From assembly GCA_963716205.1 (NCBI GenBank), contig OY970290.1, positions 303,417 to 367,416 of the forward strand: 64,000 nt of DNA, written 5' to 3'. This DNA is from an uncultured bacterium (GTDB lineage: Bacteria; Patescibacteriota; Minisyncoccia; Phycocordibacterales; GWA1-40-21). The notes below the pieces were generated by a model. It was not told where the DNA came from and ran no database searches. It saw nothing but the letters and a program-made list of their open reading frames with translations. Positions 6,489-52,033 of this stretch are shown piece by piece; position 1 is the first letter of the stretch, and each line of letters starts with the position of its first letter. The position numbers were made by a program, and so were the translations under genes.

Positions 6489-6829
6489 TAAAAGTTATCC
6501 ACAAAAAAATAGTTCCTGCACGTATTATTGCACTGCACGAAAACATTATGATTACATTACCGGATTTGGAAGTCCGCTGACGGATATATTTTAGCTTTGT
6601 GCTAAAATAGCTACATGACCTTCGAGGAACGCTATCAGAGTCTCAACCGGACGATAAAGGAAAATACAAAAAAGAAAAATTTGCCACTACGAATGAAGAT
6701 ACAAAAGAATTAATTTCCATCATTCAAAAATTTACAACAGAAATCGCAAGTTTTGAATTTTGGGATAAAAAATGTTCGGACAAAAAATGCGAATACTGCA
6801 AACTGCGGGAAGTGATGACGAAAAATTAA

Positions 6830-7695: not shown

Positions 7696-7724
7696 TTGCA
7701 AAAAATTCAATTTTCGGGTAGTAT
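7696..7724 (+). promoter_or_regulatory. Candidate sigma-70 promoter for rplU (TTGCAA-N17-TAGTAT) ending ~8 nt before the ATG
   Basis: TTGCAA at 7696-7701, 17-nt spacer, TAGTAT at 7719-7724; ATG at 7733; implies very short or absent leader. Confidence 0.3.
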
Positions 7725-7732
7725 GGTGACCT

Positions 7733-8050
7733 ATGGAATTTGCAATTATCAAGACAGGAGGCAAGCAATATAAGGTTTCAAAGGGCGATTCTCTCAAAAT
7801 TGAAAAGCTTTCGGATACCGCAAAAATTGGCGATAAAATTGTTTTTGATCAGGTTTTGCTTGTGGATAACGGCAAAGATACTTCCATTGGAATGCCTTAC
7901 ATCAAAGGTGCGAAAGTGGAAGCGAGCGTTGAAAAAATCGGCAAGCTTCCGACAATTACCGTCATTCATTACAAACAAAAGAGCAGATATTTCAAAAAGA
8001 ATGGTCATCGACAGCCATATTTCCAGGTAAAAATTGAAGCGATTAAATAA
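7733..8050 (+). CDS. rplU: 50S ribosomal protein L21
   Basis: MEFAIIKTGGKQYKVSKGDSLKIEKL... typical L21 N-terminus; 105 aa. Confidence 0.9.
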   Translation: MEFAIIKTGGKQYKVSKGDSLKIEKLSDTAKIGDKIVFDQVLLVDNGKDTSIGMPYIKGAKVEASVEKIGKLPTITVIHYKQKSRYFKKNGHRQPYFQVKIEAIK

Positions 8051-8062
8051 ATACATATACAT

Positions 8063-8098
8063 AAAGAGCGGCGCCAAAGGCGCCGCTCTTTTGATTTA
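8063..8098. terminator. Hairpin terminator between convergent rplU and recR
   Basis: AGAGCGGCGCC-AAA-GGCGCCGCTCT hairpin followed by TTTTGATTT. Confidence 0.6.
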
Positions 8099-15700: not shown

Positions 15701-15778
15701 GATCAATCCTCCTTTGTTATATTTCATAAGAATTTATTTAAATGGATAAAATAACCTTTCTAGCATTATATCACAAAT

Positions 15779-41002: not shown

Positions 41003-42211
41003 TTAATTTTTCCCATTATAAATTGCATTCAGCAAACTAAATGTTTTTGAACCAAAAATAGTTTCACCGGTAATATTGTATTTTTGCTGGAACGCTTTCA
41101 CCGCAAGTTCCGTGCATGTGCCGATGGATCCGCTGTGTGGACATTCGTTTCGTGTCATTCCTGCCGGAGGATAATCTCCGTCCATAATCAAAGCTGTCTG
41201 CATCGCATAAATATCTTCAGCGTTTGAATTTTTGCTTGTCACCGGTGTGTTCCATGCATAAATATTTTCACTTGGATCATAAGAAGAAGTCGCAGTGACA
41301 TTTGTATTTCCAGTATAGTAATCCTGCAAACCGAGGTATGTCTGATAGGCGAGATCTTTCAGTGCAATGGGGCGTGTGATCGGATTGACGAATTGCGGTT
41401 CATAAATGTAATCATATTCGATGAGAATGGCTGCTGGCTTTGCCGTGTTATAGGCACCGATGCCGATCAATTGAGGATCTTGAATAAGGCCAGGTTCTTG
41501 AATTGGAAGATCACTTGTCGGATTATAAAGCGACAGTCTGTTGAAAACCGCTTCAGCAACCGGCTTTGTGGTGGAACTGTTGTCATAAATATTCGGCGGA
41601 TAATATTCGACAAAGCCGGTGTATTTGCCGACCGCGTTATAGGCATTGCCGCGATAATTATTGACGCAGATATTAATCATGAAATTTATATCATTCTCAT
41701 CTGCCCACTTCGTGGCACCATAGATGCGGATTGCATCATCTGTTGGCGCAGTATTGTGAACTTCGCCATCATTAAAAATAGCCGCGATTGCCGGATTAGC
41801 CATAGCTGTCTCTTTTGCAGCCTGTTCCCAACTTACGATAGCATTCCAGTTGGTATTAAAATAATTTTGGAATGTTGGATTCCATGCTTGCGTCGTGCGG
41901 GTGACATATGTCTGATAGTTTCCATTGCCATCCAGAAACTCTTGCAAATCATCGCCGATGGTCACTGCCAAATCACGCTCATAGATTTCACCGGATGGTG
42001 TTGCCATCTGTGTTCCGCCCTCGTCCGGCTCATGGGCGGGCACGATCATGACACGGATTTTTTTACCGTTTGAAAATGTAGCAGAAGCCGTTGCAGCCAT
42101 TTTCGGTGCCGCTTTAACGGTGAATTGAAAAGAATAATGATCCGCGGCATACCAAACCCCACCGATGATTACTGCCGCCAAAAATAATTTGAAAATGAAT
42201 TTATTTTTCAC
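41003..42211 (-). CDS. Secreted cell-wall amidase (Amidase_3-like N-acetylmuramoyl-L-alanine amidase) with C-terminal peptidoglycan-binding-like domain
   Basis: Signal peptide; RVMIVPAHEPDEGG...YERDLAVTIGDDLQEFL...YVTRT (Amidase_3 pattern); C-terminal ...TELAVKAFQQKYNITGETIFGSKTFSLLNAIY; 402 aa. Confidence 0.55.
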   Translation of the reverse strand: MKNKFIFKLFLAAVIIGGVWYAADHYSFQFTVKAAPKMAATASATFSNGKKIRVMIVPAHEPDEGGTQMATPSGEIYERDLAVTIGDDLQEFLDGNGNYQTYVTRTTQAWNPTFQNYFNTNWNAIVSWEQAAKETAMANPAIAAIFNDGEVHNTAPTDDAIRIYGATKWADENDINFMINICVNNYRGNAYNAVGKYTGFVEYYPPNIYDNSSTTKPVAEAVFNRLSLYNPTSDLPIQEPGLIQDPQLIGIGAYNTAKPAAILIEYDYIYEPQFVNPITRPIALKDLAYQTYLGLQDYYTGNTNVTATSSYDPSENIYAWNTPVTSKNSNAEDIYAMQTALIMDGDYPPAGMTRNECPHSGSIGTCTELAVKAFQQKYNITGETIFGSKTFSLLNAIYNGKN

Positions 42212-42295
42212 AGGCCAATTGTATCAGACTGAAAATAAAAAGTCATTCAAATTTTAGAAAATAAAAAAGCCCATCTTTTGACGGGCTTTTGTGCT

Positions 42296-42440
42296 TACTT
42301 TTTCTTTCCTCGCTTCTGATTTTTCCTTGCTGTGCTCCGAAGACGACGGGTTACTCCCCAAACTGGCTGGCCGACTCGTGCTGGAACCGTAGTCGGTCAA
42401 GCACTACAATGTCGGTTTGATGAGTTTTATTGTATCAAAA
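42296..42440 (-). ncRNA. Candidate structured non-coding RNA / cis-regulatory leader (unidentified) between two minus-strand terminator hairpins
   Basis: Locally GC-rich (~55% vs ~35-40% flanks) with nested complementary segments (CCGAC...GTCGG, GACCGACT...AGTCGGCC); bracketed by hairpin+T-run at 42481-42515 (after SNF2 gene) and 42262-42295 (50 nt before amidase start). Confidence 0.25.
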
Positions 42441-42515
42441 CGACGCGACTTGAGCTACTTAAAAAGTGACAAAAGTGACAGTTTAACGAGAAAAAGTTAC
42501 ATGGACGTGTAACTT

Positions 42516-45500
42516 TTATCGCACCAGCACAAATCCTTTTTCGGCATCAAGTTTTTTGAAAAGAACATATTTTGAACCAAGTTTCAGTCTTGAAAAATTG
42601 TTCTGTATGATCACCTCACTTGGTATTTTTTCCAGTCCGCCATATTGTTTTTTCAACTTTTCTCCTATTCCAAGTATTTCTTTTTCATTTGCGAGAATTT
42701 TCTTATCTTCGCTATTCAGATCAATTTCATACTTTTTACCACCAATTTCAAACTCACTTATTACTTTTCTAGAATCGCTCAATGTAGCTTTTTTCTTTGA
42801 AATCTTGAGTGCGTCCCTATTCCACGATTTTTCTCCTGCGACCATTTCCGATGTGCTAGCATCCAAATCTTTTTCCTTTTGTAGTGTCACGAACATGGAG
42901 CGATAATTGCTTCCGTGCAGAGCCTCTCCGGTATACTCGTCCACAATTTTAAAACCCAAATCTTTTGTCAACGACTTAAAACTATCGAAATCCTTAAAAT
43001 CAAGCGAGTAAATCATGTTCATGACGAATGATCCGCCCAATTTCAATACTCTGTTCATTTCAGAAAGTACCTTTAGACGTTCGTTATTTCCTTTGATTGG
43101 TTCAGCGGTGTAATGGAATGATAAGCATAAGTTCGTGAAATCGAATGACTTATTTGCGAATGGTATATTCAAGAAACTGCCGGCAACATTTTTTGCACCT
43201 TCGCTTTTCTCACTAGTAAAATGGCGCTCGTTCATATCCATACTGACAATATTATTCTGTAAGTTGTCAGCAATATGTCGTTTGAGCATCTCCGGACCTG
43301 AGGCCACATCAAGAATTTTCACGTCTTTCATTTCTTTATCTTTTATTAGATGCTCAATAATGGATCCTGAGACCCTGTTTGCGTTCGCTTGGTAATTTCT
43401 ACTACCCATATCGAGATAGGCTTCGGCATATTCATCCCCATGCTTTGCGATAAATTCGGAAAAGTCTGATTCACTTACTGATTTTACCGAACGGAAAATA
43501 CGAAATAATTTATCAAAACTCGAAAGATAAAAACGAGCAAGTTCGGCGTTCACGCTGAGATCTGCTGTGCCTTTTTCACTTTCTTTCAAGATTTCTTTTT
43601 CAATCTCTGTGACAGGTATTCCCTTGAGTAATTTTTCAACCGCCTTTTCTTTGATATCAATATATCGATGTATTCCCTCTTCAATAGAATCAGGGACGAT
43701 AGAGGTGACAACATCGAGATCATTTTTCATACCGACACGATATACACGGGATCGTTCCTGTCGTTCCTCGCTTTTCGTCCACGGTTCGTTATAGAACAAA
43801 ACGCTTTCGCCAGCTGAATAATCAACGCCGACTCCGGCAGTCTGCCCGCTAACCACGAGCAATATTTTTCCATCTCCATTTTTAAATTGTTCTTGAATCC
43901 TATCTCTTTCTTCCTTTTCTGTTTCTCCATGGACGATAAGAATTTTAACATCCTCTGGTAAATGAAAATTGTTTAATATCGATTTATCTCCCCGAATAAC
44001 ATCTTCCACGTAGTCGTTTACAAACATAAGAACTTTATTTTTCTGCTTGAATGTTTCGTTTAGATCCTGACCAACGGTTTCCGCTTTGATATTTTTGACC
44101 CCTGGGGTTGCTTCAAGTAATTCTGGGTTCAAAAGGAATTTTCGCATTACCTGAATTTTTTCCGTCGGCGAGAGAGAATCTTCCTCAAGAAGAAGTTCAT
44201 AGATACTTCTTTCATTTTCCGAAAGTCTGCTAAGCAGTACTCTCTCAATCATCTGGGGCATTTCGATATGCTCAGCCAGACTTTTCATTTGCATCTTGTT
44301 GACAAGCAACTTTCTTAATTCGGTGATATCACCGTTGATGATCGAACTAACAAGGTTTTTGTTTTCCATCTTTTCATACTTTTCCGGGTAGAGAAGTTTG
44401 AGTAGCATCGCAACATCCTGAATTTTGTTCGGAACCGGAGTACCGGAAAGAAGCGCCAGATATTGATCCTCTGTTTTTATCATGTCAGCAAGTATAATGG
44501 CGTTCTCCGCACGCACTCCTTCCTTCACATTCTTTATTTCATGCACTTCGTCAATGATCAACATGTCATAACCGATATCGTGCAATTTTTTCGTATTCTC
44601 GGCATTCAGTCTTTCCTGGGAAATCAACACGTAATCGAGATTCTCCCTATCCAAATTGTCCAGATCAAAAATGTTTTCTATGGTCAGGATTTTTGGCGCT
44701 TGTCCTGGTTTGAAATATCCAACTTGTTTCCCGTCCCCCGATACTTCGTCCGAAAGATATTTTTGCCATGTGCTTAACACATTACTTGGAGCTACAATTA
44801 AGCCAAGTTTTACGCCTAAACATTCTTTGGCAAGTATGGCAGAAGCGCTTTTGCCAACTCCCATTTCATCGGCAATAAGCAGACGCTTTTTGTCGGCAAT
44901 TTCCTTAATATTGATAGATTGGTAAATGTCAGGAAAATTCCTGTTTTCCTGAACATTATCAATCAATCGGTCTGGTTTTTCAAAACCGTGATCAACTGAT
45001 CTATAATAGTCCATCGTCGATTGAATAACCTCATCAAGTTCTGAACTGTTGAGTTTTTTGTTTTCATCCGAAATCTTGTTAAAAAATTCTCCAAAAATAA
45101 CTTTATCTGAATCAATTCTTTTATTTCTTTTTTCACCAAGATAATATTGAAGCGCAGAATCCTTCAATACCTCAAAAAGACCCGCTTTCAAATCTTTCTC
45201 TTTTATCAAATTAGATGAGACAGCGTACTCAAGATTTTCGGTATTAAATGGTATTCTGAGAAGTAAATAGTTACCAAGATATTCCGATATGATCTTATTT
45301 GCTTTTTCGACAGGTAAACCCTTGAAGTCTGGGTGCTGGGCGTACAATACGTCCAAAAAGCGTGAGGAACCGAATAAGCCGACTAATTTTCCAAATTTTT
45401 TCGCTTCTTCCGATTCACCCTTTCCTATATCCTCACATTTTACCTTTAATTCTTTTTCCAAATTTTCCTGAGAGTTTTTTTCATTCAATGATTCTTCGCG

Positions 45501-45653
45501 AAGTAGTTTCATTACTTCTTCTTGTGCTTCCGGAGAAAGAAACAAAGTTTTTTTACCGTTTTTTCCACGAAAATAGTCGTATTTTTTCCCAGAGTTCTCC
45601 GGATTTGATTGGGTTGATTCAATCGTATTATTAAAGGGTATTTTTTCGCTCAT
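42516..45653 (-). CDS. SNF2-family helicase fused to C-terminal class-I SAM-dependent methyltransferase domain
   Basis: SNF2_N motifs (LLIADEMGVGKS; MLIIDEVHEIKN), helicase-C region, then ILDVASGPEM...LKLGGSFVM (MTase motifs I/post-I); 1045 aa; last gene of 4-gene operon. Confidence 0.8.
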   Translation of the reverse strand: MSEKIPFNNTIESTQSNPENSGKKYDYFRGKNGKKTLFLSPEAQEEVMKLLREESLNEKNSQENLEKELKVKCEDIGKGESEEAKKFGKLVGLFGSSRFLDVLYAQHPDFKGLPVEKANKIISEYLGNYLLLRIPFNTENLEYAVSSNLIKEKDLKAGLFEVLKDSALQYYLGEKRNKRIDSDKVIFGEFFNKISDENKKLNSSELDEVIQSTMDYYRSVDHGFEKPDRLIDNVQENRNFPDIYQSINIKEIADKKRLLIADEMGVGKSASAILAKECLGVKLGLIVAPSNVLSTWQKYLSDEVSGDGKQVGYFKPGQAPKILTIENIFDLDNLDRENLDYVLISQERLNAENTKKLHDIGYDMLIIDEVHEIKNVKEGVRAENAIILADMIKTEDQYLALLSGTPVPNKIQDVAMLLKLLYPEKYEKMENKNLVSSIINGDITELRKLLVNKMQMKSLAEHIEMPQMIERVLLSRLSENERSIYELLLEEDSLSPTEKIQVMRKFLLNPELLEATPGVKNIKAETVGQDLNETFKQKNKVLMFVNDYVEDVIRGDKSILNNFHLPEDVKILIVHGETEKEERDRIQEQFKNGDGKILLVVSGQTAGVGVDYSAGESVLFYNEPWTKSEERQERSRVYRVGMKNDLDVVTSIVPDSIEEGIHRYIDIKEKAVEKLLKGIPVTEIEKEILKESEKGTADLSVNAELARFYLSSFDKLFRIFRSVKSVSESDFSEFIAKHGDEYAEAYLDMGSRNYQANANRVSGSIIEHLIKDKEMKDVKILDVASGPEMLKRHIADNLQNNIVSMDMNERHFTSEKSEGAKNVAGSFLNIPFANKSFDFTNLCLSFHYTAEPIKGNNERLKVLSEMNRVLKLGGSFVMNMIYSLDFKDFDSFKSLTKDLGFKIVDEYTGEALHGSNYRSMFVTLQKEKDLDASTSEMVAGEKSWNRDALKISKKKATLSDSRKVISEFEIGGKKYEIDLNSEDKKILANEKEILGIGEKLKKQYGGLEKIPSEVIIQNNFSRLKLGSKYVLFKKLDAEKGFVLVR

Positions 45654-45702: not shown

Positions 45703-47136
45703 CTAGTCACCTTTTAGTCTTTTTAAAATTTTTTTCTTATCGAGACCAGTTTCTTCTGCAATATTATCTAAAGATACCCAACCTTGTGGAGGTTCTGGCG
45801 TTAATTTTTCATCAATAAGTTCAACTAATTTTGGTGAATAATAATATGCCATAGCACCGCCCTTAGGATTTCTGAACATTCCCCTTTCTTTTTCAAGATC
45901 AGAGTTTTTTTCAATCAATCTATCGACAGTTTTTGTAATAGTCAAACTGTTAGCTTTTCTTTTTTCTTTGAGATTTAGTAATGACATCCAATTTTCTGGA
46001 GCCTCTAATATTAAATCTTTCTCAAAAAGTCTGATTAGTTCGGGAGAATAAAAATATGTTACAGGCCCACCTTTTGGATTTTTAAATATCCCCCTTTCTT
46101 TCTCAAGATTGGGATTTTTCTCGATCAATCTCTCAATTACCCCATCGATTCCTGTTCTGCTTATTTTTATTATTTTTAATTTTTCGTGAAGATCCAATGC
46201 TGGTATCCAATTTTCAGGGGCTTCAGGCATCAAGTTCTCATCAATAAGTTCGATTAGTTTGGGTGAATAGTAGAGCGATTTCAACCCATTTGGATTTCTA
46301 AACATTCCGGTTTCCTTCTCAAGCTCAGGGTTATTTCCAATTAATTCATTAATCACCCTTTCGATTGCAACTCTGCTAAACTTTATTTTCTCTTTAAGAA
46401 AACTAGGCATAGATATCCAATTTTCAGGTGCCTCAGGCACCAAGTTCTCATCAATAAGTTCGATTAGTTTAGGTGAAAAATATATAGTGGGCATTCTATT
46501 TTCGTTCGTAAATACTCCCTTTTCTTTCTCAAGTTCAGGAGTTTTTTCAATTAATCTATCAACTATTCCTTCGATCGCCTTTCTACCTAATTTTGGTTTT
46601 TCCTTGAGAAGGCTTGGGAATGATACCCAATCCTTTGGAGATTCTTGATTTAATTTTTTTATTTTATCTTCAATCAATTTCACTAATTCTGGTGAGTAAT
46701 GAATAACTGATTTTCCGGCACTTGGTGAACGAAACATTTTAATATTTTCTTCCGCTTTCAATTTTCCGTCTGATTCATCAATGATTTGTTCAGCATATTT
46801 TCTAACAGTCGATTGATCAATATCATATCTGTCTATAATTGCAGTTTGTGTTGTCCAATCTTTTGGTGCGTCTTCAGTCAAATTTTTCTCAACTAATTCT
46901 ACAATTGCTGGTGAAAAATAAAATGACTTCCCCGTTTCTGAATTTCTAAATATCCCCCTCTCACTTTCAAGTTCTGGAAATTTTTCAATTAATCTATTGA
47001 CTAATCCATTGAACGCAGTTTTTTTGAGATTAAATCTTTTCTTAAGATCAGGTGTAGATACCCAATTTTCCGGAGCCTCCGTTGCTTCGGGTTTTTGTTC
47101 TGACTCAAAATTGTTTGTAAGGAATTTTTCTGACAT
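45703..47136 (-). CDS. Tandem-repeat protein (~6 copies of a ~70-aa HTH-like module)
   Basis: Repeat consensus PE(A)PE-W-s-L-sL-EK-g-sk--I---a-KIIEES-G-L-K--E-G-F-S-K-g-P--YySPkLVELIE--L; 477 aa. Confidence 0.7.
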   Translation of the reverse strand: MSEKFLTNNFESEQKPEATEAPENWVSTPDLKKRFNLKKTAFNGLVNRLIEKFPELESERGIFRNSETGKSFYFSPAIVELVEKNLTEDAPKDWTTQTAIIDRYDIDQSTVRKYAEQIIDESDGKLKAEENIKMFRSPSAGKSVIHYSPELVKLIEDKIKKLNQESPKDWVSFPSLLKEKPKLGRKAIEGIVDRLIEKTPELEKEKGVFTNENRMPTIYFSPKLIELIDENLVPEAPENWISMPSFLKEKIKFSRVAIERVINELIGNNPELEKETGMFRNPNGLKSLYYSPKLIELIDENLMPEAPENWIPALDLHEKLKIIKISRTGIDGVIERLIEKNPNLEKERGIFKNPKGGPVTYFYSPELIRLFEKDLILEAPENWMSLLNLKEKRKANSLTITKTVDRLIEKNSDLEKERGMFRNPKGGAMAYYYSPKLVELIDEKLTPEPPQGWVSLDNIAEETGLDKKKILKRLKGD

Positions 47137-47141
47137 AGATT

Positions 47142-49016
47142 TTAAATATTGTTTCCTTTAATTATCCTTTTTATTTTTTCTTTACTTATTCCGATTTTTT
47201 CCGACAAAGAATCTATACTCTCCCATCCTTTTGGGGCTTTTTCTGGTAAATTTTTCTCAATTAGTTCAATTAGTTTTGGAGAAAAGTATGTTGCGGGTAA
47301 ACCACTTTTTTTAGAGGCAAACATTTTTTCTTCTTTTCCCAATCCATTGTTCGATTCCTCAATTATTTTCTTGGCTATACCCTTAATTATGGAGACACTG
47401 ACATTATTTTTTTCTGCAATCGAAACCAAACTTATCCATCCTTCAGGACTCTGCTGAGGAAGACTTTGTTCAACTAAATCAACTAATTTTGGCGAAAGAA
47501 ATAATGTAGATTTGTTATTCTCAGAAAAGAATATACCCGCTTCTTTTCCGAGTTTCCCCTTCGATTCTTCAATTATTTTTTCAGATCTACTTTTAATTGT
47601 ATTTGGATCAACTTGATTTTTTTTTGCTATAGAAGCTATACTTAACCACCTATCAGGTGCTTCGTGCGGTATTTTTTTTTCAATCAATTCCACTAATTTG
47701 GGAGAGTAATATATTGCTGGCGGACCCATTTTTTTAGCAGAAAATTTTTTCATTTCCTCATTAAGTTTTCCATCTGATTCATTGATTATTTTTTGAGCAA
47801 TATTTTCAATAAACCCCTTACTGATTGAATATTTATTTACAAAGAAATTCGAGTCAGCCCATCCATAAGGAGCTTTCTCGGATAAATCTTCTTCAAGTAA
47901 TCTGACTAGTTTGGGCGAATAATATGATGTTGGAGGACCCTTCTTTTTAGAAAAAAATATTCCTGATTCTTCATCCTCTTTAAGATTCCCGTTTGATTCC
48001 TCGATTATTCTATTAACCTTATATGCAATTCCTGTTTTTGTAACTCCATATTTTTCCGCTAGAGAAATCAGATCTATCCACCCAATAGGTGGTTCTTGGG
48101 GTAGAATCCTTTCTATTGATTCTACTACTTTTGCCGAATAATATTTTGTTGGTTTATGGTTTTTGGCCCAAAATATCCCTGTATCCTTTTCTTCCGAAAG
48201 CTCACCTTTTGACTCCTCAATTATTTTTTTTGCTCTATTTTCATATGCTATTCTACTAATTCCATATTTTTTAGTTAGAGAAATTATATCAGACCATCCC
48301 TCAGGCGCTTTTTCAGGTAAGTCTCTTTCAATTAATTCTACCAGTCTAGGTGAATAATACATTGTTAGATTGCCGGACTTCTTAGACGAGAACATTCCAA
48401 CATTTTCGATTTTTTTGAGATTTTCATTTGAATCCCCAATTATTTTTTGAGCTAAATTTTCAATCGTTTTTTTATTTATTCTGTGTTTTTCAGCAAAAGA
48501 AATCCGATCGACCCATCCATCAGGTGCTTCGTGCGGTATTTTTTTTTCAATCAATTCCACTAATTTGGGAGAGAAAAAAGTTGATGGTTCATTATTTATT
48601 TTTGATGGAAACATTGACCTTTCTTTTTCTAGATTTCCATTTGACTCCTCAATTATTTTTTCAACAATTTTTATAATAGTGGGCATACTAATCCCGTATT
48701 TTTGTACTACAGATGTCATACTCACCCATTCCCCAGGTGCTCTTTTGGGTAGTTTTTTTTCAATTAATTCCACGAGTCTAGGTGAATAATATACTGCAGT
48801 AGGAATTTTTTGTGATGAAAATATCCCAATATCGTCTTTTTTAGTAAGACTTCCGTTCGATTCCCCAATTATTTTTTGAGCCAAATTTTCAATTAGTCCT
48901 CTACCAAATCCATACTTTTCTGTAAGAGAAACCAACATTTGCCATCCATCCGGAGATTCTACTGCTTCCGGTTTTTGTTCTGGCTCAAAATTGCTTATAG
49001 GAAATTTTTCTATCAT
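47142..49016 (-). CDS. Tandem-repeat protein (~9 copies of the same ~70-aa module)
   Basis: Same repeat; N-terminus MIEKFPISNFEPEQKPEAVESPDGW paralogous to neighbours; 624 aa. Confidence 0.7.
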   Translation of the reverse strand: MIEKFPISNFEPEQKPEAVESPDGWQMLVSLTEKYGFGRGLIENLAQKIIGESNGSLTKKDDIGIFSSQKIPTAVYYSPRLVELIEKKLPKRAPGEWVSMTSVVQKYGISMPTIIKIVEKIIEESNGNLEKERSMFPSKINNEPSTFFSPKLVELIEKKIPHEAPDGWVDRISFAEKHRINKKTIENLAQKIIGDSNENLKKIENVGMFSSKKSGNLTMYYSPRLVELIERDLPEKAPEGWSDIISLTKKYGISRIAYENRAKKIIEESKGELSEEKDTGIFWAKNHKPTKYYSAKVVESIERILPQEPPIGWIDLISLAEKYGVTKTGIAYKVNRIIEESNGNLKEDEESGIFFSKKKGPPTSYYSPKLVRLLEEDLSEKAPYGWADSNFFVNKYSISKGFIENIAQKIINESDGKLNEEMKKFSAKKMGPPAIYYSPKLVELIEKKIPHEAPDRWLSIASIAKKNQVDPNTIKSRSEKIIEESKGKLGKEAGIFFSENNKSTLFLSPKLVDLVEQSLPQQSPEGWISLVSIAEKNNVSVSIIKGIAKKIIEESNNGLGKEEKMFASKKSGLPATYFSPKLIELIEKNLPEKAPKGWESIDSLSEKIGISKEKIKRIIKGNNI

Positions 49017-49023
49017 ATAATTA

Positions 49024-51558
49024 TTAGGATATATTTTTATTAATAATCCTTCTAATTTTCTCCGCGTCTATTTTAGTATTTTTTGCAAGTGTCTCTACAC
49101 TAGTCCAACCTTCAGGGGGTTGATCAAGGGTTTCTCGGGAAAATTTTTCATTAATTAGCTCAACTAATCTTGGCGAATAATATATGGCAAGCCCACCAGA
49201 AGATCGAAACATTCCCATATCCATACTTTCCTTCAATTTTCCGTTCGATTCCAGGATTATCTTTTCAGCTGTATTTTTAACCGTGCTTGGATTAAATCCA
49301 TATTTTTTTGCGAGTGACACCCTGTCCATCCAATTTTCTGGTGCCTTCTTGGGCAGTCCTTGTTCGATCAATTCAACCAGTTTTGGTGAAAAATATGTTG
49401 TTAACCTATTATTACTTTTTTTTGACGGAAAAACACCGATTTCTTCATCCTCCTTCAATTTTCCGTTCGATTCATTAATTATTTTTTTAACTCGTTTTTG
49501 GATCGTCAATCTATTAACTTCATATTTTTCCATAAGGGAAACCATATCAGACCATCCCATTGGTGCTTCTTTGGGCAATCCTTGTTCGATTAATTCAATT
49601 AACTTTGGTGAGAAACATGTGGTAGGCATACCACTCTTTTTTGATCGAAATATTCCCATTTCATCCTCTTCCTTGAGTTCACCCTTTGACTCTTCAATTA
49701 TTTTTTTTGCTTTACGTTGAATATACTGATTATCAGTATTATATTTTTCCGCTAGAGATGCCAAATCCGCCCAATCTTTTGGGGCTTCTTTTAGTAAATC
49801 CTTCTCGATTAATTTAACTAATCGTGGTGAAATATATATTGAAGGTCTCTTACTTTTTTTTGACAGGAAAACACCCATTTCGTCTTCTTTCTTGAGCTCT
49901 CCATTTGATTCCTCAATTATCTTTTTAACCCTACCCTCAATTTTTGTTCTACTAGAATCATCTTTTTCTGAGAAAGAAAGCATACTTATCCATCCTTCTG
50001 GAACTTCTTTAGGTAAATTTTTTTCAACTAGTTCAACTAATTTTGGTGAGAGGTATACGGACGGAGGACCACCTTTGGGGGAAGGATAAATTCCCATCTC
50101 CTCATCTTTTTTGATCTTTCCGTTCGATTCTTCAATTATTTTTTTTATTCTATTTTTAATAGTGCTTTTATCTGCTCTACTTTTTTTTGTAACGGAACCT
50201 AAATCCAGCCATCCTTCGGGTACTTCCTTGGGTAGTCTCTGCTCAATCAATTCAATTAGTTTGGGTGAGAAATACATAGTTAACCTATTACGTTTTTTTG
50301 ATGGGAACATACCCATCTCATTGTCTTTTTTGAGTTCCCCCCCTGATTCCTCAATTATTTTTTTGGCCCTGTTTTCAATTATTGTTTTATCTATCCCATA
50401 TTTCTCTGTAAGTGGAATTATACTTATCCATCCATCAGGAGTTTTTTCAGGCAACTGTTGTTTAATCAATTCAACCAATCTTGGTGATAAATGCATGGAA
50501 GGACTACCGTTTTTATTCGAGGGGAAGATTCCCATCTCCTCATCTTTTTTGATCTTTCCGTTCGATTCTTCAATTATTTTTTGGGCTCTGCTTACAATCA
50601 TTGTTGCACCAAATCCGTATCTTTCCATAAGAGAAGATAAATCGGTCCAACCTTCAGGTGCATCTTTCGGCAATTCTTTTTTAATGAGTTCTGCAAACTC
50701 AGGAGAGAAATATGTTGTGGGATAACCACTTTTTTTAGCAGGAAAGGTCCCCATTTTTTTCGCAAGTTTTCCGTTCGATTCCTCGATTATTTTTTGGGCT
50801 CTATTCTCGACTATTGATCTGCTAGTTTTGTATTTTTTTAAAAAAGAAATTAGGTCTATCCATCCTTCGGGGGCTTCTTTCGGTAAATTTTTCTCGACCA
50901 ATTTAACTAACTTTGGTGAGTAATATATCGCTAATCCCCCAGGAGATCGAAACAACCCCGTTTCTTCACCTTCTTTCAGTTCTCCGTTTGATTCCTCAAT
51001 TGTTTTTTGTATTCTTCTTTTAAGAACATTCTCACCAACAGCATATTTTTCCATAAGCGTAGGCGTGTCTACCCAACTCATAGGGGCCTCGTTCGGCAAT
51101 TCTTTTTTAATGAGTTCTGCAAACTCAGGAGAGAAATATGTTCCGGGCACCCTACCCCTTTTAGACATAAATTCCCCAACCTCTTCAGTGAGATTTCCGT
51201 TTGATTCTTGAAGTAATTTTTTAACCCTCTTTTCAATAGTTCCTCTGCTGAGTTTATGCTCCTCAGCAAAAGAAACTAAATCTATCCATCCTTTTGGTGC
51301 TTCCTTAGGTAGATTTTTTTCTATTATCTCTGTCAACTTAGGTGATAAGTATTTTGCCGGTTTACCACCGTTTTTAGATTTAAACATCCCTATTTCCTCT
51401 GCTATTTCTCCGCTCGATTCCTCAACTATTTTCTGGACCCTTCTTTCGATTACACCCTTATCAAATCCAAATTTTTCTGCGAGAGAGGTTATATCTGTCC
51501 ATTCTTCAGGAGCTTCCTGAATTGACTCATTTGAATTAAATGGAAATTGTTCAGTCAT
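49024..51558 (-). CDS. Tandem-repeat protein (~12 copies of the same module); start moved to MTEQFPFNSNES by homology with paralogues
   Basis: 12 repeats, e.g. PEGWTDLSSLMERYGFGATMIVSRAQKIIEESNGKIKKDEEMGIFPSNKNGSPSMHLSPRLVELIKQQLPEKT; ORF extends to 51753 but upstream 65 aa are non-repeat and unlike paralogue N-termini. Confidence 0.7.
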   Translation of the reverse strand: MTEQFPFNSNESIQEAPEEWTDITSLAEKFGFDKGVIERRVQKIVEESSGEIAEEIGMFKSKNGGKPAKYLSPKLTEIIEKNLPKEAPKGWIDLVSFAEEHKLSRGTIEKRVKKLLQESNGNLTEEVGEFMSKRGRVPGTYFSPEFAELIKKELPNEAPMSWVDTPTLMEKYAVGENVLKRRIQKTIEESNGELKEGEETGLFRSPGGLAIYYSPKLVKLVEKNLPKEAPEGWIDLISFLKKYKTSRSIVENRAQKIIEESNGKLAKKMGTFPAKKSGYPTTYFSPEFAELIKKELPKDAPEGWTDLSSLMERYGFGATMIVSRAQKIIEESNGKIKKDEEMGIFPSNKNGSPSMHLSPRLVELIKQQLPEKTPDGWISIIPLTEKYGIDKTIIENRAKKIIEESGGELKKDNEMGMFPSKKRNRLTMYFSPKLIELIEQRLPKEVPEGWLDLGSVTKKSRADKSTIKNRIKKIIEESNGKIKKDEEMGIYPSPKGGPPSVYLSPKLVELVEKNLPKEVPEGWISMLSFSEKDDSSRTKIEGRVKKIIEESNGELKKEDEMGVFLSKKSKRPSIYISPRLVKLIEKDLLKEAPKDWADLASLAEKYNTDNQYIQRKAKKIIEESKGELKEEDEMGIFRSKKSGMPTTCFSPKLIELIEQGLPKEAPMGWSDMVSLMEKYEVNRLTIQKRVKKIINESNGKLKEDEEIGVFPSKKSNNRLTTYFSPKLVELIEQGLPKKAPENWMDRVSLAKKYGFNPSTVKNTAEKIILESNGKLKESMDMGMFRSSGGLAIYYSPRLVELINEKFSRETLDQPPEGWTSVETLAKNTKIDAEKIRRIINKNIS

Positions 51559-51655
51559 ATGACTACGGTATAACAAATTTGCCGAAAATGCAAATAAAAA
51601 CTTGCATAAAATATTAATGTATGTTATGGTAAAGCCCGAAAGAGAGGTGTACCTT

Positions 51656-51973
51656 ATGGATCTCATATCAGTTTCTTCGACGAAGTTTCGCAACAAGGAG
51701 GATGGAACTGAGTTCACGGTTGTCAAAGCCAAACGCTTTGAGAAGCATAACATCAGGAAATACAGACAGTACCTGATGTCACTCTCAGACGGAAAGCTCG
51801 TGGGCGTTTACTTCTACGGCCAACTGGTGCCCCTCATCACCGTAACTACCGGTGTCGAGAAGCTCACCCAGGTGACCGTCGGGAAAAAACTGCTACGTAC
51901 GGCAGCCGAGATAAGCAAGGCCCTGGGAATCAAGAAACCCAAAAAGCCCGTTCCGCTTGTTCTCGTTTCGTAG
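51656..51973 (+). CDS. Hypothetical protein (GC-rich, RBS AGAGAGG, strong terminator)
   Basis: MDLISVSSTKFRNKEDGTEFTVVKAKRF...; 106 aa; visibly higher GC than surroundings. Confidence 0.5.
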   Translation: MDLISVSSTKFRNKEDGTEFTVVKAKRFEKHNIRKYRQYLMSLSDGKLVGVYFYGQLVPLITVTTGVEKLTQVTVGKKLLRTAAEISKALGIKKPKKPVPLVLVS

Positions 51974-51993
51974 TCCGGAAGTACAACAAGACT

Positions 51994-52033
51994 CGCACTC
52001 ATGACTTATGGTCGTGAGTGCGTTTTATTTTTT
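51994..52033 (+). terminator. Rho-independent terminator
   Basis: CGCACTCATGAC-TTATG-GTCGTGAGTGCG then TTTTATTTTTT. Confidence 0.65.

Follow-up and report, generated by a model that had tools for sequence, protein, structure and literature searches.

The window analysed here is a 64 kb stretch of the chromosome of an uncultured member of the Patescibacteria (CPR), with an overall GC content of 40%. The candidate element lies on the minus strand in a 304 bp spacer (42212-42515), which begins directly at the stop codon of a gene for an SNF2/SAM-methyltransferase and ends at the start of a gene for an Amidase_3 protein. Pfam matches in both flanking genes confirm that the first-pass annotation had placed the spacer correctly. 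The upstream gene (42516-45653, minus strand) encodes a 1045 aa fusion of an SNF2 helicase and a SAM-dependent methyltransferase (Pfam SNF2-rel_dom, Helicase_C and Methyltransf_11); homologues at 43–49% identity occur widely across Patescibacteria, and many of them carry helix-turn-helix domains. The downstream gene (41003-42211, minus strand) specifies an N-acetylmuramoyl-L-alanine amidase of 402 aa with an N-terminal membrane anchor, a Pfam Amidase_3 domain and a PG_binding_1 match below threshold. Its start codon does lie downstream of the second of two hairpins in the spacer, as had been described, but is GTG and not ATG, and the GTG start is supported by the N-terminal membrane anchor, which aligns with those of orthologues (MKKELIFKLFL, MKRKLILKIF). 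Homologues of the amidase are annotated as belonging to Patescibacteria, Paceibacterota, Adlerbacteria or Taylorbacteria. The search for other public copies of the locus turned up a single one, on Logan contig L001, which differs at 1 base over 7209 nt (99.99% identical).

Further upstream, on the same strand, are three genes (45703-51753) for proteins of 477, 624 and 909 aa, which together contain about 30 tandem copies of a repeat of approximately 71–73 aa (213–219 nt period). The repeat proteins are similar to an N-terminal extension present in longer SNF2-methyltransferase homologues (for example, that of L092, 1822 aa), as well as to ORFs upstream of the SNF2-methyltransferase homologue in L093, which suggests that repeat proteins and SNF2/methyltransferase form a module that is widespread in Patescibacteria. 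Searches of all three proteins against Pfam and with PADLOC gave matches below threshold only (HEPN_Swt1, HTH, VMAP-M12 and PDC-S05), the 624 aa and 909 aa proteins having weak, sub-threshold helix-turn-helix matches at their C-termini. No att-like direct or inverted repeats joining the spacer to the far end of this gene cluster were found.

The strongest signal within the spacer is a hairpin at 42290-42258 (minus strand), AAAAGCCCGTC-AAAA-GATGGGCTTTT followed by TTATTTT, that was detected by terminator scan, fold energy and pair probabilities alike. It has 11 pairs (5 of them G-C), a 4 nt loop and a folding energy of -16 kcal/mol, and its pair probabilities are close to 1.0 in the full-length ensemble. 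A G+C-rich stem-loop with a U-run directly after it is the canonical form of an intrinsic (Rho-independent) terminator, and the earlier description of a second hairpin with a U-run is borne out. Such hairpins, with at least 11 pairs and a T-run, number only about six in the first 60 kb of the window, and the ones inspected lie at or beyond gene ends. One small gene with a strong terminator of its own (8063-8091) is an rplU-like gene (ribosomal protein L21; plus strand, 7724-8091, product MEFAIIKTGGKQYKV...), which falls below the 120 aa cut-off used for ORFs and whose ATG is preceded, at 8 nt, by a -10 box. The terminator at 42258-42290 follows no ORF with detectable homologues, and is separated by 46 nt from the start codon of the amidase on the same strand. 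It would end a small transcript, and the SNF2 operon may in fact terminate here as well.

Between this terminator and the amidase gene is a promoter-like sequence, P2 (42218-42246, minus strand), identified by promoter and pattern scans and consisting of a -35 element (ATGACT), a 17 nt spacer and a TG-extended -10 box (TACAAT). The extended -10 box, TGATACAAT, is at 42226-42218 and ends 6 nt before the GTG codon. The same 9-mer occurs at 42437-42429, just upstream of a GC-richer block, as the extended -10 box of a second putative promoter, P1 (minus strand, pattern scan), which has a poor -35 element (TAGCTC). Neither promoter, nor the hexamer array described below, was noticed in the first-pass annotation. 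The two identical copies are among only three occurrences of TGATACAAT in the window, and both fit the sigma-70 extended -10 motif TGnTAnAAT at a suitable distance; by this match to the motif, both are predicted to be active, and transcription from P1 is predicted to start near 42421-42424.

There are 27 occurrences of TGNTANAAT in the window, 13 of which are found in the roughly 10% of the sequence that lies outside the listed ORFs, so that extended -10 motifs are enriched about 9-fold there. Among 51 gene starts, none has an SD-like 4-mer between positions -20 and -4, and the distribution of -10-like hexamers has its maximum exactly 6 nt ahead of the start codon; translation in this genome therefore appears to be largely leaderless or SD-independent. 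P2 and the amidase gene form an arrangement of the leaderless type, with the spacing typical for the genome, and a related sequence, TCTGATAnAnT, is found 11 nt before the amidase start codon in three orthologous loci (L003, L004 and L011).

The block between P1 and the terminator had been described as conspicuously GC-rich, which is partly correct. At 42296-42440, the coordinates first given, it contains 46.9% GC, and the best window of about 120 nt reaches 51–53%, while spacers between ORFs taken as genes average 38% (sd 6.7), so the block is about 2 sd above them. It is, however, within the range of the coding sequences, windows of which often equal it. By folding, pair probabilities and GC content, the body of a candidate small RNA was delimited at 42306-42424 (minus strand, 51–53% GC), with a predicted stem-loop 1 at 42354-42424 and a predicted stem-loop 2 at about 42308-42349, the latter with a 16 nt loop, GCACAGCAAGGAAAAA. 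Following stem-loop 2 is a purine-rich tail, and the stretch around it contains five SD-like 4-mers in 70 nt, a density in the top 1% or so of 70 nt windows; these could hint at a role in titration, or reflect plain composition. The single base that distinguishes L001 from the window (42334 of the window, 2878 of L001; C versus G, minus strand) maps to the loop predicted for stem-loop 2. Strain variation or a sequencing error could account for it, and the position of this base inside the candidate is an anecdote, giving no sign of constraint.

The multiple nested complementary blocks earlier seen in this region do not translate into unusual stability. Without the terminator, the 119 nt body has a folding energy of -30.5 kcal/mol, compared with -29.9 ± 3.5 kcal/mol after dinucleotide shuffling (z = -0.16); of 200 shuffled sequences, 89 fold as well or better. 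With z = -0.93, the opposite strand is no different. A longer stretch that includes the terminator reaches z = -2.1, but this is probably due mostly to the terminator, since the effect is lost once it is omitted. The fold of the block is a plausible two-hairpin model that is no more stable than expected by chance.

At the upstream end of the spacer is the inverted repeat AAGTTACA-CGTCCA-TGTAACTT (42494-42515, minus strand; read in the sequence and assessed by fold energy and hexamer scan), which had been taken as the terminator of the upstream operon. The repeat is real, but its strength as a terminator is not: the stem is A/U-rich with only 2 G-C pairs, its energy is -9.3 kcal/mol, the U-tract (TTTCTCGTT) is poor, and the terminator scan did not call it as an intrinsic terminator. 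At best, it is a weak terminator of the SNF2 gene. Its arms carry a hexamer of the TGTAAC type that is shared with an adjoining tandem direct repeat, two copies of TGTCACTTT at 42466-42480 (minus strand), which is the sole exact match to TGTCACNNNTGTCAC in the window, and the inverted repeat may thus be an operator. Together, the arms and the tandem repeat provide four TGT[A/C]AC hexamers within 48 nt (42466-42513), directly upstream of P1 and at about -45 to -90 relative to the predicted start of the small transcript. The array, inverted repeat included, resembles an operator array more than it does a terminator, although the hairpin could be both, and we regard the array as a candidate site for binding of a regulator. 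Its spacing and the fourth base of its hexamers do not agree with a WalR-type site (TGTWAH-N5-TGTWAH).

Taken together, these features are best explained by a small orphan unit on the minus strand that is transcribed on its own, a candidate sRNA gene, to which we tentatively assign a probability of about 0.4. With a promoter-like signal on one side of the block and a strong terminator on the other, a unit of about 165 nt is defined, within which neither coding homology nor a known RNA family was found. Transcription would be initiated from P1 near 42422 and stopped about 165 nt further on by the terminator at 42290-42258. If P1 fires and its RNA accumulates, the result would be a non-coding RNA in which a GC-richer 5' half is followed by a single-stranded, purine-rich stretch and the terminator hairpin, and a regulator binding the TGT[A/C]AC array would probably control the unit. 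The amidase gene would be transcribed separately from P2, giving a leaderless or nearly leaderless mRNA that escapes cis control by the small RNA, and any read-through from P1 would simply add a leadered amidase transcript. Limits on this reading come from P1, which has a poor -35 element and whose single extended -10 match is not a rare event in an AT-rich spacer. An independent small RNA had been one of two options offered in the first-pass annotation, and P1 ahead of the block keeps it viable, but homologues or covariation to back it were not found.

In its layout, the candidate resembles stand-alone bacterial sRNA genes, which have their own sigma-70-type promoter, a length of 50–250 nt and a Rho-independent terminator. 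Shared features are the extended -10 box, the length of about 165 nt, the U-tailed terminator, the lack of coding homology, the intergenic position and a single-stranded, purine-rich stretch as a possible interaction region. It differs from them in that no homologues were found and its predicted structure is not above chance. There are also similarities to sRNAs derived from mRNA 3' ends with an internal promoter: the candidate is directly downstream of a long operon, has its promoter-like signal after the stop codon, and shares what is likely to be the operon's real terminator.

The main alternative is, in our estimation, only somewhat less probable than the small transcription unit. Here the block would belong to the SNF2-methyltransferase operon as its 3' untranslated tail, or would be non-functional DNA, either plain spacer or a relic left where a rearrangement joined two regions, with P1 a chance match; the hairpin at 42494-42515 would then fail to terminate, and the operon would end at 42290-42258. 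The first hairpin is indeed weak and atypical compared with the strong terminators of this genome, the structure of the body is no better than expected by chance, and searches for relatives were uniformly negative. For these, 80 orthologous amidase loci from species-representative genomes were collected with up to 2.5 kb of flanking sequence per side. Neither blastn nor tblastx detected the element in these or in 10 further loci, and tblastx across all loci and the window revealed no coding relative of the spacer. A covariance model built from the window and the L001 copy and searched over 558 kb, which likewise gave no hit in the 80 orthologous loci, recovered the element itself only. Degenerate-pattern scans of JGI metagenome contigs, exact scans of IMG/VR and blastn against plasmids and phages all returned no match, and the regions downstream of two SNF2-methyltransferase homologues contain no comparable spacer. 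Within the 90%-identity cluster of the amidase, the full-length member P0243 is in a different genomic context and lacks the element, and the short member P0241 is in unrelated loci. Support from conservation or covariation is absent, because the collections searched yielded no homologue of the unit, and the comparison with the corresponding region of relatives that had been proposed as a check revealed no counterpart in the 80 loci collected.

The gene neighborhoods also fit a rearrangement junction. In the four closest relatives, amidase synteny is fully broken, with neighbours unconserved on both sides even in the closest of them, at 79% amino acid identity, and tRNA genes occupy the position of the element in L002, L003 and L004; in L011, a protein-coding gene is found there. 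These tRNA genes immediately precede the amidase gene in the same orientation, at 2408-2481 in L002 (Lys), 2070-2448 in L003 (Met, Met, Asp) and 2248-2321 in L004 (Gln). Against a tail or relic, the terminator of the rplU-like gene comes no more than about 15 nt after the stop codon, whereas the gap here is about 225 nt. The block also exceeds other spacers in GC content, P1 is an exact and rightly placed copy of the 9-mer of the amidase promoter, and the hexamer cluster upstream of P1 is unique.

A second alternative, improbable in our estimation, is that the region acts mainly at the level of DNA, the four TGT[A/C]AC sites serving as an operator array, for example, for helix-turn-helix proteins of the neighbouring repeat-protein/SNF2 module, with any RNA from P1 incidental. 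With a background of about 0.6 TGT[A/C]AC sites per kb, the array is the only cluster of at least three such hexamers within 60 nt in the 64 kb window, and 493 kb of related loci contain no further one except in L001, which is the same locus (about 556 kb in all). The sub-threshold helix-turn-helix matches of the 624 aa and 909 aa proteins, and the domains of this type in many SNF2-methyltransferase homologues, would provide potential binding partners. Such a role, however, leaves the GC-richer block of 120 nt and the strong terminator unexplained, and the motif has no second site in the window.

Less probable still is a cis-acting amidase leader, either a riboswitch (for c-di-AMP or of a new class) or a protein-dependent attenuator, in which P1 would be a regulated amidase promoter and the terminator an expression platform. 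This was the other option in the first-pass annotation, which had suggested a ydaO-type element. In Firmicutes and Actinobacteria, riboswitches of the ydaO type are known to control genes for cell-wall hydrolases. The geometry fits, with a promoter, about 130 nt, a terminator and a further 46 nt before the start codon, all on one strand, and, as with ydaO-yuaA (RF00379), a terminator comes after the candidate and a gene for a cell-wall hydrolase lies downstream in the same orientation. A scan of the whole window against Rfam 15 at gathering thresholds, a check that had been proposed at the outset, returned two tRNAs only. When the 451 nt around the spacer (42150-42600) were searched with permissive filters at E ≤ 10, RF00379 was absent among the 26 matches; the sub-threshold matches listed are mostly over the terminator hairpin, and none has E < 0.1. 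By-eye comparison with SRP RNA, preQ1, ykkC and the 3' half of a tRNA was unconvincing and had no backing from Rfam. ARAGORN located a tRNA-Gln and a tRNA-Asn elsewhere in the window, and no tRNA, tmRNA or remnant of either in the spacer.

The terminator itself does not behave as a switch in these predictions. With its 3' arm withheld, the core of the 5' arm is mostly unpaired, apart from two bases that pair with probabilities of about 0.5–0.6 to partners at adjacent bases only, and the best pairing of the 5' arm to the upstream body is 0.27. Because the 5' arm has no alternative partner, an antiterminator or expression platform is not predicted, in contrast to ydaO-yuaA. The element is also absent upstream of all 80 orthologous amidase genes, and Rfam searches of these loci found tRNAs and no riboswitch. 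Further, the amidase gene has its own promoter of the leaderless type past the terminator, unlike genes controlled by ydaO-yuaA, and a similar core precedes its orthologues in the three loci mentioned above. A cis-acting riboswitch is therefore unlikely, given the negative results from Rfam, antiterminator prediction and orthologues together with the separate amidase promoter, and the absence of structure above chance also counts against such a leader. None of the features tested for, whether of c-di-AMP riboswitches or of riboswitches generally, was found at the locus.

Three small ORFs are present in the spacer, of 48 aa (42254-42400, minus strand), 45 aa (42332-42469, plus strand) and 43 aa (42289-42420, plus strand), and the missing SD motif is no argument against them, since genes in this genome do not need one. 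A small-protein gene, in the form of the 48 aa or the 45 aa ORF, is nevertheless very improbable, as an exhaustive HMMER search of 1.84 billion representative proteins with the low-complexity 48 aa product gave a single, low-complexity match, a word-indexed search with the 45 aa product gave no homologue, Pfam gave no match for the 48 aa or 43 aa products, and the 48 aa ORF has a TTG start that neither coincides with the predicted 5' end of the transcript nor follows an A/T-rich stretch of the kind found at other genes, and contains the strong terminator hairpin.

Returning to the small transcription unit, its RNA, if functional, would most likely be a lineage-specific sRNA that acts in trans or binds a protein. 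A more specific scheme can be drawn, although we give it little credence: a regulatory sRNA particular to this lineage of Patescibacteria, switched via the regulator of the TGT[A/C]AC array, with the purine-rich stretch, in which GGAG/AGGA motifs are dense, acting in trans in an organism that lacks SD sequences at its own genes; it could titrate, for instance, an RNA-binding protein or the anti-SD of the ribosome. Unrestricted RNA duplex energies between the candidate and the 51 gene starts are dominated by length, and hence uninformative on this point. In this scheme, the adjacent amidase gene would hint at a link to envelope remodelling. We know of no RNA chaperone in Patescibacteria, and to our knowledge their regulatory RNA repertoire is almost unknown; a literature search for small or non-coding RNA in Patescibacteria found nothing on sRNAs of this group. 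If real, the transcript would be among the very few candidate regulatory sRNAs proposed for Patescibacteria. As a single-genome prediction that lacks conservation support, the locus is of value mainly for the negative result, namely that the amidase is not under the control of a c-di-AMP or other known riboswitch. The useful outcomes are the rejection of the riboswitch, recognition of the promoter architecture and the flagging of a candidate operator, and the locus also illustrates the leaderless, SD-free gene organization of this lineage.

Two further observations were made in the window. Extended -10 motifs outside the listed ORFs are also found at 6600, 14250 and 38493 (plus strand) and at 15773 and 14289 (minus strand), with no start of a listed ORF within 500 nt downstream, and these may mark small genes or other small transcripts. 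The GC-richest stretch of the window (254 nt, 53–57% GC), listed as intergenic, lies at 51754-52022, beyond the gene for the 909 aa repeat protein; part of it is shared with a 123 aa plus-strand ORF (51602-51973) that has no Pfam match, and a strong plus-strand hairpin with a T-run is found at 51994-52022. The annotated start of the 909 aa gene may be in error here, or a small gene may have gone unrecognised, and the region deserves checking.
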